Source of the DNA: Methanocaldococcus sp. 16A
GTDB lineage: Archaea; AGJL01; Methanococci; Methanococcales; Methanocaldococcaceae
DNA: 64,000 nt
Assembly (NCBI GenBank): GCA_049860595.1
Contig: CP187551.1
Strand: one strand, 5' to 3'
Shown here: one piece after another, positions 2,998 to 49,706 of the stretch
How positions within the stretch are numbered: the first letter of the stretch is position 1
How the letters are laid out: every line of letters begins with the position of its first letter
Translations under genes and position numbers: made by a program
The notes under the pieces: generated by a model
Database searches by the model: none
The model's input: only the letters and a program-made list of their open reading frames with translations
What the model was told of the DNA's origin: nothing

Positions 2998-3453
2998 TTG
3001 GCGTCAAATGCAATGTCTGAAATCGTTATGTTTGTTGCTGTATTGTTAATCGCTGCATTTGTTGCAGGGATTTTAACAACATCCACTTATAAAATTTCTA
3101 TAAATATTGGAAAAAAAGGTGATGCATTAGCTACTAAGCTATCACAAGATTTTGAGATTATAAATGACCCAGGTAACATAACGAGAAATGCTTCAGCAGG
3201 TACAACTTTACTTTATATTAAAAATACAGGTAAAGACCCGATAATATTTACGAATAGTTCATTTACGGTAATTATCGATGGAAATATTGTAAAAATTAAT
3301 ACAACAAATCAGCTAACGACTCCTGGAATTAATGTGTTATATCCGGGAGATGTTGGGGAGATTGTTGTAAATTACAATGAAACTGGATATCATAGAATAA
3401 AAGTTATTTCAGATTCTGGAATTTCGAGAATTATTAAGGGTCGTATTTCCTAA
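2998..3453 (+). CDS. flaG: Archaellum stator protein FlaG (ArlG)
   Basis: SEIVMFVAVLLIAA N-terminus, FEIINDP and YIKNTG motifs; GGTGA RBS. Confidence 0.92.
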   Translation: MASNAMSEIVMFVAVLLIAAFVAGILTTSTYKISINIGKKGDALATKLSQDFEIINDPGNITRNASAGTTLLYIKNTGKDPIIFTNSSFTVIIDGNIVKINTTNQLTTPGINVLYPGDVGEIVVNYNETGYHRIKVISDSGISRIIKGRIS

Positions 3454-43502: not shown

Positions 43503-45140
43503 TTAAAATTCATCACCTCCCATGTCTCCGCCTTCTCCGCCTTTCTCGTCTCCTTTAACTTTCTCAGCAGCAATGACATCGTCAATTCTTAAGAGCATGA
43601 CTGATGCTTCTGTAGCAGAGTCAATTGCTTGTGTTTTAACTTTTAATGGTTCAACAACTCCTTTTTCTAACATGTTAACAACTTCTCCTTCGAAGACATC
43701 TAATCCGCAAACTTCTCCTCCTTCTTTCTCGTGAGCAGCTCTTAACTTAACGAGCATGTCAATTGGGTCTAATCCTGAGTTCTCAGCTAATGTTCTTGGA
43801 ATGACTTCTAAAGCATCAGCAAATGCTTTAACTGCTAATTGCTCTCTTCCAGCAACAGTCTCTGCGTATTTTCTTAATCTCTTAGCTAATTCTATTTCAG
43901 TAGCTCCTCCACCAGCAACAATCTTACCTTCTTCTAATGCACACTTAACAACTCCAATTGCATCATCTAAAGCTCTTGCAACTTCTTCAACGACATGCTC
44001 TGTTGAACCTCTTGCTAAGATTGTTACAGCTTTTGGATGCTTGCACTGCTCAACGAATATCATTGCATCTCCAGCAACTTTTCTCTCTTCAACTAATCCA
44101 GCTTCTCCTAAGTCTTCTGGTGTTAAGTCATCAATCTTTGTAACGATTCTTGCTCCTGTTGCTTTAGCTAATTTCTCCATGTCTGATTTCTTAACTCTTC
44201 TTACTGCTAAGATTCCCTTCTTAGCTAAGTAGTGCTGAGCTAAGTCATCAATTCCTTTCTGACAGAAGACAACATTAGCTCCTGTAGCAGCAATCTTCTC
44301 AACCATGTCTTTAATCATTTTCTCTTCTTGCTCAATGAACTCCATTAACTTAGATGGGTCAGTAATTCTTATTTCAGCATCTGTTTCTGTCTCTTTGACT
44401 TCAATTGGGCAGTTTAATAATGCAATCTTAGCGTTTTCAACTTTCTTTGGCATTTGTGGGTTGACTCTCTCTTTGTCAATGACGACTCCTCTTATTAATG
44501 TAGTTTCTTCAATTGGAGCTCCTTCTTTCTTCTCAACTTTAATTAAGTCTTTGTCAACTTTTCCTGTTTCTTCATCAACAACTGCTCTAACAGCTTCAAC
44601 AACAATTTCAGCTAACTGTTCTCTTGCTTTCTCTGCTCCTTTTCCAGTAATTGATGTCATTGCAATTTTCTTTAACATTTCTGTATCATCAGCTTTTATT
44701 TCTTTAGCTATAGCTTTTAATTCTTCAACTGCCTTGTTTCTTGCCATTTCGTATCCATTGATGATGACTGATGGGTGGATGTTTTGGTCTAATAACTCTT
44801 CAGCCTTTCTTAATAACTCTCCAGCAATAACAACTGCTGTTGTTGTACCATCTCCAACTTCTTTCTCTTGTGTTTTAGCAACTTCTATTAACATCTTAGC
44901 AGCTGGGTGCTCAACACTCATTTCTTTTAATATTGTAACTCCATCGTTTGTAACAACAATGTCTCCTAACTCATCAACTAACATTTTGTCCATTCCTTTT
45001 GGACCTAATGTTGTTCTAACTGTCTCAGCGATAATTCTACCTGCTAATATGTTCATTCTTTGAGCGTCTCTCCCGACGTATCTCTTAACATTTTGTGGTA
45101 ATACTACTATTGGGGTTCCTGCCATTGCCATGTGTCTCAC
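43503..45140 (-). CDS. ths: Thermosome (group II chaperonin); probable start ATG 45131
   Basis: [26 protein letters not shown]. Confidence 0.97.
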
Positions 45141-45264
45141 CTCAGGTTGTTACCTTATTCGGTATATACATGATAATGAAATTCTATATAAATTTTTTGG
45201 TTATGTTCATGATTATGACAAAAACATTAAATCTATATATTTAAAAAATAATAAAAAATAAAAA

Positions 45265-45768
45265 TTAGCATAATTTTTTCAATCTGCCATTATCTAAAAC
45301 AAAGAGTTCAAAACCATACATTTTGGCTTTATTTATAATTTTGCTATCTGCAGATAATAAGCAAAATATTACTTTAACATCTCTATTTGTTGCAATAGGA
45401 TGTTTTTTTATATTATCTATTAAATTTGCTATTTTTCTCATTTTGTTTATTGCTCTTTTTTTATCTGTTTCTATTTCTGCAATTATAACCTCTTTATCAT
45501 TTATAATTACTAAATCTGGTCTAAAACCTAAATTAGAAAGTTTAGTTCCAGAGGATTCTATATATTGATTACCTTTAAATATCTCCAATAATTTCTCCCT
45601 AATATAGCTATGATAGAAACCTTCAGCTCCTACTTTGTCCCCATATATGGCTATTTTTAAATTTTCTATAGCTTTATCTATTGCCTTATTGTTTAATTTT
45701 TCATTTATATCTTCGAGCTCTTTTATTATATTCAATATTCTATTTTTTAATGCTTCATTTCCTTGCAT
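45265..45768 (-). CDS. Putative PD-(D/E)XK-fold endonuclease with N-terminal helical hairpin
   Basis: EGFYHSYI (motif I-like), FRPDLVI (motif II), IIAEIET (motif III, ExE variant); overlaps the mutS 3' end by 22 bp. Confidence 0.62.
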   Translation of the reverse strand: MQGNEALKNRILNIIKELEDINEKLNNKAIDKAIENLKIAIYGDKVGAEGFYHSYIREKLLEIFKGNQYIESSGTKLSNLGFRPDLVIINDKEVIIAEIETDKKRAINKMRKIANLIDNIKKHPIATNRDVKVIFCLLSADSKIINKAKMYGFELFVLDNGRLKKLC

Positions 45769-48212
45769 TTTTTCACTATTCTATCTAACTCTATAAGAGC
45801 CTGTATTGGAGTTAAATTATTTGTATCTATATTGGCAATTTCTTTGATTAGGCTATTATCTACCTTAGTATCTAAGGTTTTATATATTTCATAAGCTCTA
45901 TCAACAACTTCTTTAGGTAGAACTAATTCAGCTATCTTTATTCCATAGCTCTCCTTACTAACTCCTCTCCTTATCTTTCTATCAAACTCTAATGTTTCTC
46001 CCTCAATAATTCTAAAGTGGTAATTCTTAACTCCCTCTAATAAGCTCTCAAGCTCTGCTAATTCATGATAATGAGTAGCAAATAATGTCTTAGCTCCTAT
46101 TTTGTGTATATATTCTACAATAGCCCAAGCCAAACTTGTACCATCTCTACTACCTGTACTTTTACCAACTTCATCCAATAGTATTAAGCTCTTACTCGTT
46201 GCATTTCTTAATATTTGTCCTACTTCAGCAATCTCTACCATAAAACTACTATAACCTCTTGTAATATCATCTACAGTTCCAATTCTTGTGAATATCCTAT
46301 CTACAACCCCTATAACTGCATATTTTGCAGGAACAAAACATCCAATTTGTGCCATAATTGTTATTAGTGCTGTCATTCTTAAATATGTAGATTTACCAGC
46401 CATATTTGGACCAGTTATTAATATTATCCTACTATCTCTCGTTAATGTAACATCATTTGGAGTAAATTTAACTGTTAATTCAACGGTAGGATGTCTTCCA
46501 TCCTTTATAATTATATCATATCCATTATTTACTTTTGGTCTTTTGTAATTGTAAAGAACAGAAACTTCTGCAAATGTAGATAATACATCAAGTTCAGCTA
46601 TTTTTAAAGCACAATCTCTTATCTCATCAACTCTCTCAGCTATTTTATTTCTAATATTTATAAAGAGTTCATACTCTAAATTTTTTATCTTTTCTTCACA
46701 TGCTAATATTTTAGTTTCCATTGACTCAAGCTCATCTATAGTATATCTCTCAGAGTTTGCCAAAGTTTGCTTTCTCTTATAATGTTTTGGAACAAACTTA
46801 ATTTTTGATTTTGGCACCTCTATGTAGTATCCCATAACTGAATTATAACTAATCTTTAATTTTTCAATGCCTGTTGCTTTTCTTTCTCTTTCTTCAAGCT
46901 CTTTAATGAATTTCTCATGATTATTTTTAAGTTCTCTTAACTCATCCAATTCAGCTGAAAATCCTTCTTTAATTATCCCTCCATCCTTTATACTTAATGG
47001 AGGGTCTTCCACTATAGCACTATCTATAAGCTCTACAATGTCATTTAATGTTTTTAGTTCTTCAACAATTATATTTAATTTTGTAGAAGTAAAGTTAAAG
47101 TTTTTTATTTCTTCAATAGCTTTTAAAGAATTTTTTAAAGCTATTAAATCCTTTGGTGTGGCTTTTTTATACTCTATTCTACTTACTATTCTCTCAAGGT
47201 CATAAACATCTTTTAAAATCTCTCTAAGATTTTGCCTTAAAAAACTCTTTTCATAGAGTTCTTCAACAGCCTCCAATCTTTTATCTATCTCATCTACATT
47301 TATTAAAGGTCTTTGTAGCCATCTTTTTAATAACCTACTTCCCATTGCAGTCATTGTTTTATCTAAAACTTCAATTAAAGAGCCTCTTCTACTATTATCA
47401 ATTAAGTTTTTAAATATCTCAAGATTTTTCAAAGTAGTGGAGTCTAATATCATATATTCTTTGCTAATATATTTCTGCAATCTAAATTTAAGCTCCTTTA
47501 CCAATAAAGATTCTTTAATGTACTTCAATGCAGCACCACAAGCTATTATAGATTCATTCTCAAGTTCCAAGCTTTTAAGATTTGCAATGCATTCCTCAAG
47601 TAAATTTAAACAGTCCTCTTTTTTGTAATAATCTTCACTTAGAGGATGAACTACAGGAATATGTTTCTTTATTTCTTCCAAATTCTCAAAATCTTTTGGT
47701 AAAATACATTCAACTGGAGTAAATTTTAATATTTCAGCTATAACTTCCTCAAAACTATCTACAGTTGTAGTTAAAAATTCCCCAGTAGATACATCAATTA
47801 ATGCAATCCCAAACTTACAGCCTTTATATATAGAGATGAGATAGTTGTTCTCTTTAGTTAATAGCTCTTCCTCAATTAATGTTCCTGGAGTTATAACTCT
47901 AACAACTTCTCTTTTAACTAAACCCTTAGCTTTTGAAGGGTCCTCAACCTGCTCACATATAGCTACAGTATAACCTCTCTCTATCAACCTCTTTATATAT
48001 GGGAATACTGCATGATGAGGAACACCAGCCATTGGGTGCTTTTTATCCCTTGATGTTAAAACAATACCGAGCTCTTTAGAGGCGATTTTTGCATCTTCAT
48101 CAAAAAGCTCGTAGAAATCTCCAACTCTGAAAAATAGTAATGCATCTTTATATCTCTCCTTAATCCTATAATATTGCCTCATCATTGGAGTTAAGTTGGC
48201 CATAATAATCAC
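45747..48212 (-). CDS. mutS: DNA mismatch recognition protein MutS1 (full length); probable start ATG 48203
   Basis: LTPMMRQY...GDFYELF mismatch-binding domain, PMAGVP, Walker A GPNMAGKSTY, SFMVE, FATHYHEL, C-terminal LTPIQAL oligomerisation motif. Confidence 0.95.
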   Translation of the reverse strand: MIIMANLTPMMRQYYRIKERYKDALLFFRVGDFYELFDEDAKIASKELGIVLTSRDKKHPMAGVPHHAVFPYIKRLIERGYTVAICEQVEDPSKAKGLVKREVVRVITPGTLIEEELLTKENNYLISIYKGCKFGIALIDVSTGEFLTTTVDSFEEVIAEILKFTPVECILPKDFENLEEIKKHIPVVHPLSEDYYKKEDCLNLLEECIANLKSLELENESIIACGAALKYIKESLLVKELKFRLQKYISKEYMILDSTTLKNLEIFKNLIDNSRRGSLIEVLDKTMTAMGSRLLKRWLQRPLINVDEIDKRLEAVEELYEKSFLRQNLREILKDVYDLERIVSRIEYKKATPKDLIALKNSLKAIEEIKNFNFTSTKLNIIVEELKTLNDIVELIDSAIVEDPPLSIKDGGIIKEGFSAELDELRELKNNHEKFIKELEERERKATGIEKLKISYNSVMGYYIEVPKSKIKFVPKHYKRKQTLANSERYTIDELESMETKILACEEKIKNLEYELFINIRNKIAERVDEIRDCALKIAELDVLSTFAEVSVLYNYKRPKVNNGYDIIIKDGRHPTVELTVKFTPNDVTLTRDSRIILITGPNMAGKSTYLRMTALITIMAQIGCFVPAKYAVIGVVDRIFTRIGTVDDITRGYSSFMVEIAEVGQILRNATSKSLILLDEVGKSTGSRDGTSLAWAIVEYIHKIGAKTLFATHYHELAELESLLEGVKNYHFRIIEGETLEFDRKIRRGVSKESYGIKIAELVLPKEVVDRAYEIYKTLDTKVDNSLIKEIANIDTNNLTPIQALIELDRIVKKCKEMKH

Positions 48213-48370
48213 TTCTTTAAATTTTTTTAAATTTTATTTAATATTATGTGAAAAATAGAATTATCCATACATTAAAGCCCAAATATTTGCAAATTTTCAA
48301 AATAAAACTAATTAAATCAATTCTTTAATCCATATCGACAAATTAACATATATTAAAAAGGTTTATTTAA

Positions 48371-48442
48371 TATAGGACTTTCGCAGTTTATATATTAGTT
48401 TAGTGTATTTATGATGCATTATGTTTATTCCTTCACGCTATA
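48371..48442. repeat. Palindromic element, copy 7 (right end degenerate)
   Basis: TATAGGACTTTCGCAGTTTATATATT...TTTATTCCT. Confidence 0.7.
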
Positions 48443-48461
48443 AAAATTTGATGGGCTGATA

Positions 48462-49706
48462 GTGATGTTCCAAAAACCGAGAGGAACAAGGGATTTTTTA
48501 CCAGAAGAAATGAAAAAAAGGAGATTTATTGAAAATAAGTTGAGAGAAGTTTTTGAGAGATATGGATATAAGGAGATATTAACACCAACCTTTGAAAGTT
48601 TTGAGTTAATTGCTAAAAAAACAGGAGAAGAAATTAGAAAACAACTTTATGTTTTTAAAGATCATGGTGGAAGAGAAATGGCTTTAAGACCTGAAATGAC
48701 GTCTCCAGTTGTAAGATTCTATTTAAATGAATTAAAGAATTTACAGAAACCTTTAAGATTATATTATTTTGCTAATTGCTTTAGATATGAGAGACCTCAA
48801 GCTGGAAGATTTAGAGAGTTTTGGCAGATGGGTTGTGAGTTAATAGGTTGTAAAGAACCGTTAGCAGATGCTGAAGTTTTAAATTTAGCGATGGATGGTT
48901 TAATAAATATTGGTTTAGATTTTGATGTTCATATTGGTCATTTGGGAGTTTTGAAGGGTGTTTTAGAGAAGTTTAATGTTAGTGAGGAAGAAGAGGTTAA
49001 AATAAGAAGGTTGATAGATAAAGAGGATTATGAAAATTTAGAGAAATACTTAACTCAAATCTTAGGGGAAGAAAAGAAGGAGCTAATATTTGATATATTA
49101 AAATTTAAAGGAGGAAAAGAGATTTTAGATGAACTAAAAGAGATATTGAAAGATTTCCCAAAATCTATAGAGGCAATAAATAACTTAGAAGAGATTTTAG
49201 AGTATGTTATTCATGATAGATATACAATAAACCTTGGAATTGCAAGAGGTTTGGATTATTATACAGGAATGGTATTTGAGATATATGGAAAGAAAGGAGC
49301 TAAGCAGATATGTGGTGGAGGGAGATATGACAATTTAATAGAAACATTTGGAGGAGAGCCAACACCAGCAGTTGGTTTTGCCTATGGATTTGATAGAATT
49401 ATGATGAATATTGATGACCTAAATATTGAAGAAGAAAATATTTTAATAATCCCAGTAAAAAAAGATAAGGAATTAATTAAAAAATCTCTAATTATAGCTG
49501 ATAAGTTAAGAAAAGCTGGAAAAATTGTAGAACTTGAAATTATGGGTAGAAAGTTAAGAAAAGCTTTGGATTATGCAAATTCGAGAGGATTTAAGAAAGT
49601 AGTTATTGTCGGAGAGAAAGAGCTTAATGAAAATAAAGTAACTTTAAAGGATATGGTTACAGGAGAGCAGAAATTAATCAACATAGATGAATTAACAAAT
49701 CTCTAA
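48462..49706 (+). CDS. hisS: Histidine--tRNA ligase
   Basis: [38 protein letters not shown]. Confidence 0.97.

Follow-up and report, generated by a model that had tools for sequence, protein, structure and literature searches.

In canonical mismatch repair, the sensor MutS1 works together with MutL and, in E. coli, with MutH, which is a PD-(D/E)XK nuclease. Hyperthermophilic archaea without MutS-MutL have instead NucS (EndoMS), a small restriction-fold nuclease that is reported to sense the mismatch itself and to bind PCNA. Another theme is a MutS that has its own nuclease and no MutL, as in plant MSH1 (GIY-YIG), octocoral mtMutS/MutS7 (HNH), and MutS2 (Smr); such fusions are described as 'self-contained' repair in two articles (PMC3166940, PMC12292046), and MSH1-dependent double-strand breaks are reported in a 2026 bioRxiv preprint. 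The locus considered here lies in a stretch of 64,000 nucleotides (hereafter the window) of contig CP187551.1 of Methanocaldococcus sp. 16A and consists of a mutS gene overlapped at its 3′ end by a small gene for a candidate nuclease. This pair is probably a two-gene, MutL-independent mismatch-repair module, as the first-pass annotation of the window had proposed; the absence of MutL, the co-conservation of the two genes, and a natural fusion of their products support this reading, in which MutS would recruit the predicted nuclease.

45747..48203, minus strand: mutS, 818 amino acids (aa) counted from the ATG at 48203 (MANLTPMM...), the likelier start
45747..48212, minus strand: longer open reading frame (ORF) of mutS, 821 aa from the GTG at 48212
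45265..45768, minus strand: small MutS-associated gene encoding a candidate PD-(D/E)XK nuclease, 167-aa ORF
45747..45768, minus strand: overlap of mutS and the small gene, 22 nucleotides (nt), ATGCAAGGAAATGAAGCATTAA

Like the canonical system, the locus has an orthodox MutS1 as sensor and a partner gene directly downstream of mutS, as mutL is in one canonical Archaeoglobi operon. However, no MutL has been found here, the partner is a protein of 158-181 aa across its family that contains no GHKL ATPase, DNA_mis_repair, or MutL_C domain, and the MutS is devoid of the Qxx[LM]F linker. With NucS the locus shares its occurrence in hyperthermophilic archaea lacking MutS-MutL, a small restriction-fold nuclease (a predicted one in this case), and alternation within the genus, but the sensor is MutS, and the small protein matches neither NucS_C nor a NucS alignment. 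As with MSH1, MutS7, and MutS2, a MutS would be provided with a nuclease of its own and would do without MutL; in contrast to these proteins, the predicted nuclease is of a different fold class and is encoded by a separate overlapping gene in 27/28 genomes, next to a full bacterial-type MutS1 on archaeal chromosomes. A MutS with a dedicated nuclease is thus a known theme; the partner family at this locus is unnamed, and searches of the open-access literature found no description of a MutS1 with such a small partner. Reviews hold that hyperthermophilic archaea lack MutS/MutL (PMC7343888), and a systematic study that MutS1 and MutL occur strictly together (PMC2190696). The clade of paired MutS proteins contradicts both statements, as it presents an intact MutS1 in hyperthermophiles, never with MutL and always with one small partner. 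The strict co-occurrence stated in that study (PMC2190696) is not seen in the source genome, the genus, the pair-bearing Archaeoglobi, or the genome that encodes the fusion described below.

The source genome is 99.98% complete, and the searches for MutL and NucS covered all of it, beyond the window. Hidden Markov model (HMM) searches returned no MutL_C, no DNA_mis_repair domain, and no NucS_C in this genome, and the sole TIGR00585 match (23.9 bits versus a cut-off of 180) falls in topoisomerase VI subunit B. As controls, the MutL models detected MutL in 11/14 reference genomes, and Methanocaldococcus jannaschii gave a NucS_C match and no match to MutS_I or MutS_V. The earlier observation that mutL is missing from the window therefore extends to the whole genome, and the genome-wide search for mutL and nucS suggested at that stage finds neither. 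MutL_C is likewise absent from the genus (0/17 genomes) and from the 20 Archaeoglobi genomes that bear the pair. Among 113 genomes altogether (17 of the genus and 96 of Archaeoglobi) it occurs in one, G117, in which a MutS of 45% identity lies directly upstream of MutL_C and no small ORF is present. Given this mutS-mutL arrangement without the small ORF, as against pair genomes without MutL, the two genes are alternative downstream partners of mutS, and the small gene occupies the operon position that mutL has in the one canonical Archaeoglobi operon examined.

The small ORF is a genuine gene, strictly co-conserved with this MutS clade. The pair is present in 7/17 genomes of the genus and in 20/96 Archaeoglobi genomes; no MutL_C was found in these 20, and the pair does recur in a second phylum, in genomes without a MutL_C match, a point on which the first-pass annotation had asked for a check. 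Of 61 related genomes, seven, all of the genus, encode the small protein; MutS_I was detected in the same seven and in one unrelated genome. A pattern scan of species-representative genomes yielded nine loci, from Archaeoglobaceae or from metagenome-assembled genomes (MAGs) labelled 'uncultured archaeon', and at all nine the start of the small gene meets the end of a MutS of 67-76% identity. Within the 96 Archaeoglobi genomes, the small ORF was found in 20 and MutS_I in 23: the ORF and MutS share one contig and strand in 19 genomes, the N-terminus of MutS runs off the contig in the twentieth (G065), and in G084, G124, and G111 a clade-type MutS (68-73% identity) is cut by contig ends before its 3′ end, the last of the 23 being G117. 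Two of the findings named in advance as speaking against a module, a cognate mutL elsewhere and a small ORF not co-conserved with mutS, thus did not turn up, as the genome has no mutL and co-conservation is strict.

The overlap that the first-pass annotation put at 22 bp is indeed 22 nt in the window and measures 19-25 nt at every locus measured with both ends assembled. In the window it joins the 3′ end of mutS (codons ...K-K-C-K-E-M-K-H-stop) to the start of the small gene, ATGCAA (Met-Gln). The ATG straddles the codons for Lys/Arg and Cys near the MutS C-terminus, and the overlap imposes both the conserved (K/R)-C-(K/R) found there and the first two residues, Met-Gln, of the small protein. 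Across 21 loci, the distance matrices of the two proteins correlate (r = 0.87, with 0/2000 Mantel permutations as high), and the rate of divergence of the small protein is roughly double that of MutS. No genes other than mutS and the small gene recur at all loci; their neighbors are housekeeping genes, including those for ribosomal proteins S13/S4/S11, RpoD, PheT, Usp, ths, and hisS, and, once, DNA ligase. In one Archaeoglobi MAG, an ATP-dependent DNA ligase gene (L030, 6927-8591) follows the pair in the same orientation after about 420 bp, an arrangement not seen at the other loci. Another MAG, G090, has two copies of the small ORF on contigs C15 and C204 (L057, L027); the second copy is located at a contig start, with only the last 29 residues of MutS before it, and the bin may contain a mixture of strains.

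A natural fusion of the two proteins is also encountered. In a search of 401 genomes of the phylum to which Archaeoglobi belong, one further match was found, in G335, as an open frame of 1133 aa (1094 aa from the first start codon) that carries MutS domains I-V at residues 63-849 and, after a low-complexity linker, the small-protein domain at residues 911-1094. This domain is 28% identical to residues 10-122 of the window protein (BLASTP E 2e-08). The profile E-value for G335 is inflated, because the alignment already contained its domain as P0141, which had first been found with a profile built solely from Methanocaldococcus-type sequences (E 1.9e-05 among 1.84 billion proteins). An independent metagenome contig (L079) contains the same ORF, with 98.6% protein identity and no stops, and the fusion is therefore not an assembly artefact. 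In the tree, the MutS portion of the fusion falls with the pair clade (SH-aLRT 98), on a long branch that makes this placement provisional. In G335, no MutL_C was found, and the NucS_C match is sub-threshold only. MutS and the nuclease-like domain are joined in one polypeptide in G335 and L079 only, as compared to the separate overlapping genes of the window. The linker of the fusion (L078, 6760-6870) is a low-complexity Gly/Val/Ala repeat in which the assemblies differ by gaps (6 gap openings in the nucleotide alignment).

The larger protein is an orthodox bacterial-type MutS1 and the single MutS encoded in the genome. It contains all five Pfam domains (I 2.5e-45, II 1.4e-18, III 1.5e-57, IV 8.2e-29, V 5.4e-73), passes the NCBI equivalogs NF003810 (968.8 bits versus a cut-off of 480) and TIGR01070 mutS1 (912.9 versus 641.7), and matches E. 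coli MutS chains in the PDB over residues 5-789 (E 1.2e-171). Its translation includes GDFYELF, which holds the Phe-x-Glu motif for mismatch binding, and GPNMAGKST and LLDEVG, Walker A and B being the ATPase motifs; across 26 clade members, no variation is seen at D29, F30, E32, the residues of Walker A, or D677/E678. An intact MutS1 with the Phe-x-Glu motif and a full ATPase, as the first-pass annotation described it, is thus borne out by domains, equivalogs, and motifs alike. The same annotation assigned to it a C-terminal oligomerization helix, and this holds in part: the tail (...NNLTPIQAL...) aligns with canonical MutS C-termini, but when searched against the PDB it did not retrieve the E. 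coli MutS C-terminal domain, and an oligomerization role gains no support there.

In the MutS tree, the paired proteins form one well-supported group of 43 rows among the best 120 MutS matches. The C-terminal ...LTPxQAL... motif is kept in 34/43 of them, and the Qxx[LM]F motif, which in the MutS1 linker binds the sliding clamp, is found in 0/43 versus 43/76 of other MutS1 proteins; the tail after SYG[IV] has a median length of 70 residues in the pair clade versus 95 in other MutS1. Judged by these sequences, the C-terminal linker of the clade is shortened, with loss of the part bearing Qxx[LM]F. Linker loss together with MutL loss fits a pathway that does not involve clamp-activated MutL incision. 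In one MAG of the genus (G003:C26, 85% complete), the clade-type mutS is in two pieces with a frame change near residue 465 (L009, about 3044-3062), due either to a frameshift or to misassembly; the small ORF that follows it is intact.

The small partner has remained without a name in databases. Six family members were recovered by a word-indexed search of 5.8 billion proteins, and 14 with a 29-sequence profile, all 'hypothetical' or unnamed and without a precomputed Pfam domain; a full HMM scan of 1.84 billion representative proteins gave 10. Thirteen of the 23 matches in that representative search (P0133-P0147) were rejected as motif noise, as they are giant proteins with 4-7 short matching stretches each. 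These proteins, of 815-3995 aa, match the profile around G-[FY]-R-P-D, and the 3/13 that were scanned contain DUF7483 repeats. Across 29 family sequences, down to 25% identity, M1, A33, E49, H53, E71, R83, P84, D85, E98, E100, and K109 are invariant, including all of the E..H, PD, and ExE motifs to which the first-pass annotation had pointed. Residues 1-45 form a conserved N-terminal region with A33, and residues 46-167 carry the motifs from E49 to K109. The small gene is under purifying selection, with dN/dS of 0.09-0.19 in nine pairs.

With respect to fold, similarities are weak and all to families with the restriction-endonuclease fold. In Pfam searches (E <= 0.1), the AHJR-like restriction endonuclease family (PF18743) is matched by 22/29 members, with a best E-value of 5.4e-05, and PDDEXK_10 (PF07788) by 10/29, any other family being matched by at most two. 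When aligned by hhalign with three Hjc sequences (E 0.012-0.014), D85 falls on the Hjc Asp and E98-x-E100 on the Hjc E-x-K. With a profile of 15 sequences, a weak match (E 1.7-2.5) put the RPD strand opposite the KPD strand of R2 retrotransposon proteins, and the named neighbors in the ESM Atlas, PDDEXK_3, PDDEXK_11, AHJR-like, and MunI (scores 0.87-0.90), serve as leads only. The best resemblance, weak as it is, is to Hjc and AHJR-like proteins, with which the Asp and the E-x-(K/E) strand align; in contrast to these, the small protein has sub-threshold scores, 45 extra residues at the N-terminus, and an E-x-E followed by an invariant Lys. The PD-(D/E)XK signature calls for a Glu in helix 1, a (P)D, and a (D/E)-x-K on consecutive strands; E49, P84-D85, and E98-x-E100 are invariant, but the canonical Lys is Glu (E100). 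Taken together, the small protein appears to comprise a PD-(D/E)XK-fold domain of an E-x-E variant behind a conserved N-terminal region of 45 residues. The nuclease assignment of the first-pass annotation accordingly stands in the direction of these similarities, and falls short in that none exceeds a curated threshold. No AHJR-like members were found in the 61 related genomes searched, no consistent family match in PHROGs, and MutH is not listed for the small protein in Pfam scans at E <= 1. Complex prediction for MutS and the small protein scored 0.11 and 0.03, below the mark of 0.32, and was counted neither for nor against binding.

In the mechanism that we propose, mutS and the small gene would be made in a coupled fashion, the latter encoding a PD-(D/E)XK-fold nuclease with E49, E71, D85, E98, E100, and K109 as putative active-site residues. 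MutS loaded at a mismatch would direct or activate the nuclease, leading to a cut in the DNA nearby, and the MutS-directed nuclease would replace MutL and, where used, MutH. By analogy, the cut might be handled as in the NucS pathway or by plant MSH1, that is, as a break followed by resection and recombination with another genome copy, which the loss of the Qxx[LM]F linker and the alternation with NucS in Methanocaldococcus make likely. The cassette would have passed between hyperthermophilic archaea and been inserted here between ths and hisS.

The alternation with NucS is seen in the genus, where strong NucS_C matches (E <= 3e-51) are present in 6/17 genomes and in none of the seven that bear the pair. 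In one of these six cassette-less genomes (G006:C1:435165-435509), a TGA lies inside the NucS_C match, leaving an open frame of 124 aa, and this nucS may be decaying or mis-sequenced. Several points weigh against the module. The alternation concerns related genomes rather than independent events; NucS and the pair are both missing from 4/17 genomes of the genus and from most Archaeoglobi genomes; and among pair-bearing genomes, G063 has an ORF of 112 aa with a NucS_C domain, G065 a frame of 179 aa with a NucS_C-like domain, and G009 and G011 NucS_C-like proteins of 238 and 328 aa, respectively, which are unlike the 262-aa NucS of the genus. The Archaeoglobi counts, moreover, come from genomes without reported completeness. 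As for the small protein, no Pfam gathering threshold is passed (16.4 bits versus 26.1 for the window protein and AHJR-like), the hhalign probability against Hjc is 3-4%, hhalign against a three-sequence alignment of the NucS of the genus gives no significant match (E 0.47), and PDB searches return nothing at E <= 10 with the 29-sequence profile, whereas the profiles of 7 and 15 sequences match, at E >= 0.59 only, Cap12, Psu, and the endonuclease region of the R2 retrotransposon. In the third motif, E-x-E stands in place of E-x-K, with the invariant K109 nine residues later. We infer from sequence the fold and nuclease activity of the small protein, and likewise its recruitment by MutS and the cutting of DNA; for strand discrimination, the module offers no explanation.

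Two further observations concern these NucS-like sequences. In G009 (L040, 500-1216) and G011 (L041, 226-1212), the NucS_C-like domain is weak (E 5e-8 and 2e-7), follows a different N-terminal region, and has no counterpart in the source genome. The 112-aa ORF of G063, an Archaeoglobaceae MAG (L042, G063:C34, 550-888), corresponds to the C-terminal nuclease domain of NucS alone and may be a remnant.

Several other explanations of the pair have to be weighed. It could act against recombination, with MutS sensing heteroduplex mismatches with diverged DNA and the nuclease destroying the intermediate, thereby limiting homeologous recombination among co-resident vent archaea. The genomic facts are the same as for repair, an activity not coupled to the replication clamp would agree with the loss of the Qxx[LM]F linker, and the cassette has itself been transferred between phyla, so these organisms do exchange DNA; however, the alternation with NucS in the genus suggests an overlap with a function in replication fidelity, and we regard an anti-recombination role in place of repair as unlikely, bearing in mind that one pair could perform both roles. 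The small protein could also be a non-nuclease adaptor or regulator, built on a degenerate scaffold resembling a restriction endonuclease and connecting MutS with, for example, another nuclease, a helicase, or PCNA, as the replacement of the canonical (D/E)xK Lys by Glu (E100), the family matches all below threshold, and the conserved N-terminal 45 residues, which look like an interaction element, would allow. Such an adaptor is nevertheless rather improbable, given that four acidic residues, a His, and a Lys are retained without exception down to 25% identity, which is the pattern of an active site, and that E-x-E variants occur in known restriction enzymes such as BamHI.

ATPase-plus-nuclease gene pairs are a common design in defence, and the cassette is patchily distributed and horizontally transferred, both of which would suit an anti-virus or anti-plasmid system with a MutS-type ATPase as the sensor of foreign or abnormal DNA and a nuclease as the effector that it triggers. 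Defence had been listed by the first-pass annotation among the possible functions and was rejected as the leading explanation: the neighbors are housekeeping genes and not defence islands, PADLOC gives no consistent match (at most 2/15 members per model) and PHROGs likewise, the MutS is an orthodox MutS1 with a conserved mismatch-binding motif, and the pair is mutually exclusive with MutL, which together render it very improbable. Least credible, to the point that we give it almost no weight, is the absence of any functional link, the small ORF being an unrelated gene or a selfish passenger that travels with mutS. Linkage alone would produce correlated distances, but it does not account for an overlap kept in two phyla while the small protein diverged to 25-40% identity, for the purifying selection on that protein, for the in-frame fusion in two independent assemblies, or for the presence of the small ORF next to every clade MutS whose 3′ end is assembled.

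The preferred reading, a MutL-independent repair module, can be extended to a more general proposal, which we put forward tentatively and with slightly less than even confidence: the pair may represent a third prokaryotic mismatch-repair architecture beside MutS-MutL and NucS, composed of MutS1 and a dedicated restriction-fold nuclease, with no MutL and no clamp motif, in which mismatches would be turned into breaks repaired by recombination in polyploid hyperthermophilic archaea. The cassette would then spread horizontally and displace NucS, and its fused form would be an archaeal counterpart of plant MSH1. If the partner is a nuclease, what MutS needs downstream for the start of repair becomes directly testable; the pair would then be a thermostable system reduced to two proteins, of which a single-chain form occurs in nature, and it would show NucS to be replaceable by a MutS-based module.

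The site at which the cassette resides is informative about its origin. Its flanks, a thermosome gene and hisS according to the first-pass annotation, are confirmed by HMM matches:

43503..45140, minus strand: thermosome gene (ths), Cpn60_TCP1 1e-194, one flank of the insertion site
48462..49706, plus strand: hisS, histidyl-tRNA synthetase 4.3e-74, the other flank of the insertion site

Divergent ths and hisS genes adjoin each other, about 200 bp apart, in 4/5 genomes of the genus that lack the cassette, which identifies the 3.3-kb cassette as an insertion at this site. It occupies the same site in the nearest relative and is next to hisS in G016; other genomes showed neither ths nor hisS within the flank of about 1.5 kb examined on each side. 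In the MutS tree, which is midpoint-rooted only, the eight rows from Methanocaldococcus fall inside a set of rows, some of which carry the labels Archaeoglobus sp. and Ferroglobus sp., and this nesting favors a transfer from Archaeoglobi. Most likely, then, the cassette moved between hyperthermophilic archaea, from Archaeoglobi to Methanocaldococcus, in agreement with the horizontally acquired two-gene cassette envisaged by the first-pass annotation. The G+C content of mutS and the small gene is 0.27-0.31 and not distinct from the neighborhood.

Around and between the two genes, three elements may bear on expression:

45769..45777, minus strand: purine-rich stretch AGTGAAAAA, just 5′ of the ATG of the small gene
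45232..45264, minus strand: T-rich tract tttttattttttattatttttt, directly 3′ of the TAA of the small gene
48213..48461, strand not assigned: divergent intergenic region between mutS and hisS

The purine-rich stretch may serve as a Shine-Dalgarno-like site, for either coupled or independent initiation. In 15/15 loci inspected, the position 5′ of the ATG of the small gene is occupied by GTGA or, at one locus, AGGAG, and this conserved element is consistent with separate initiation of the small gene. A programmed -1 fusion of the two products at GTG AAA AAA TGC, considered conceivable in the first-pass annotation, was rejected: the A-run is found in Methanocaldococcus loci only, is not conserved, and gives way to gtgagaagATG in Archaeoglobi loci. 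No stem-loop terminator was found at the T-rich tract by a consensus scan, and the tract itself may mark the end of a two-gene transcript, the putative promoter of which is presumably located in the intergenic region between mutS and hisS.

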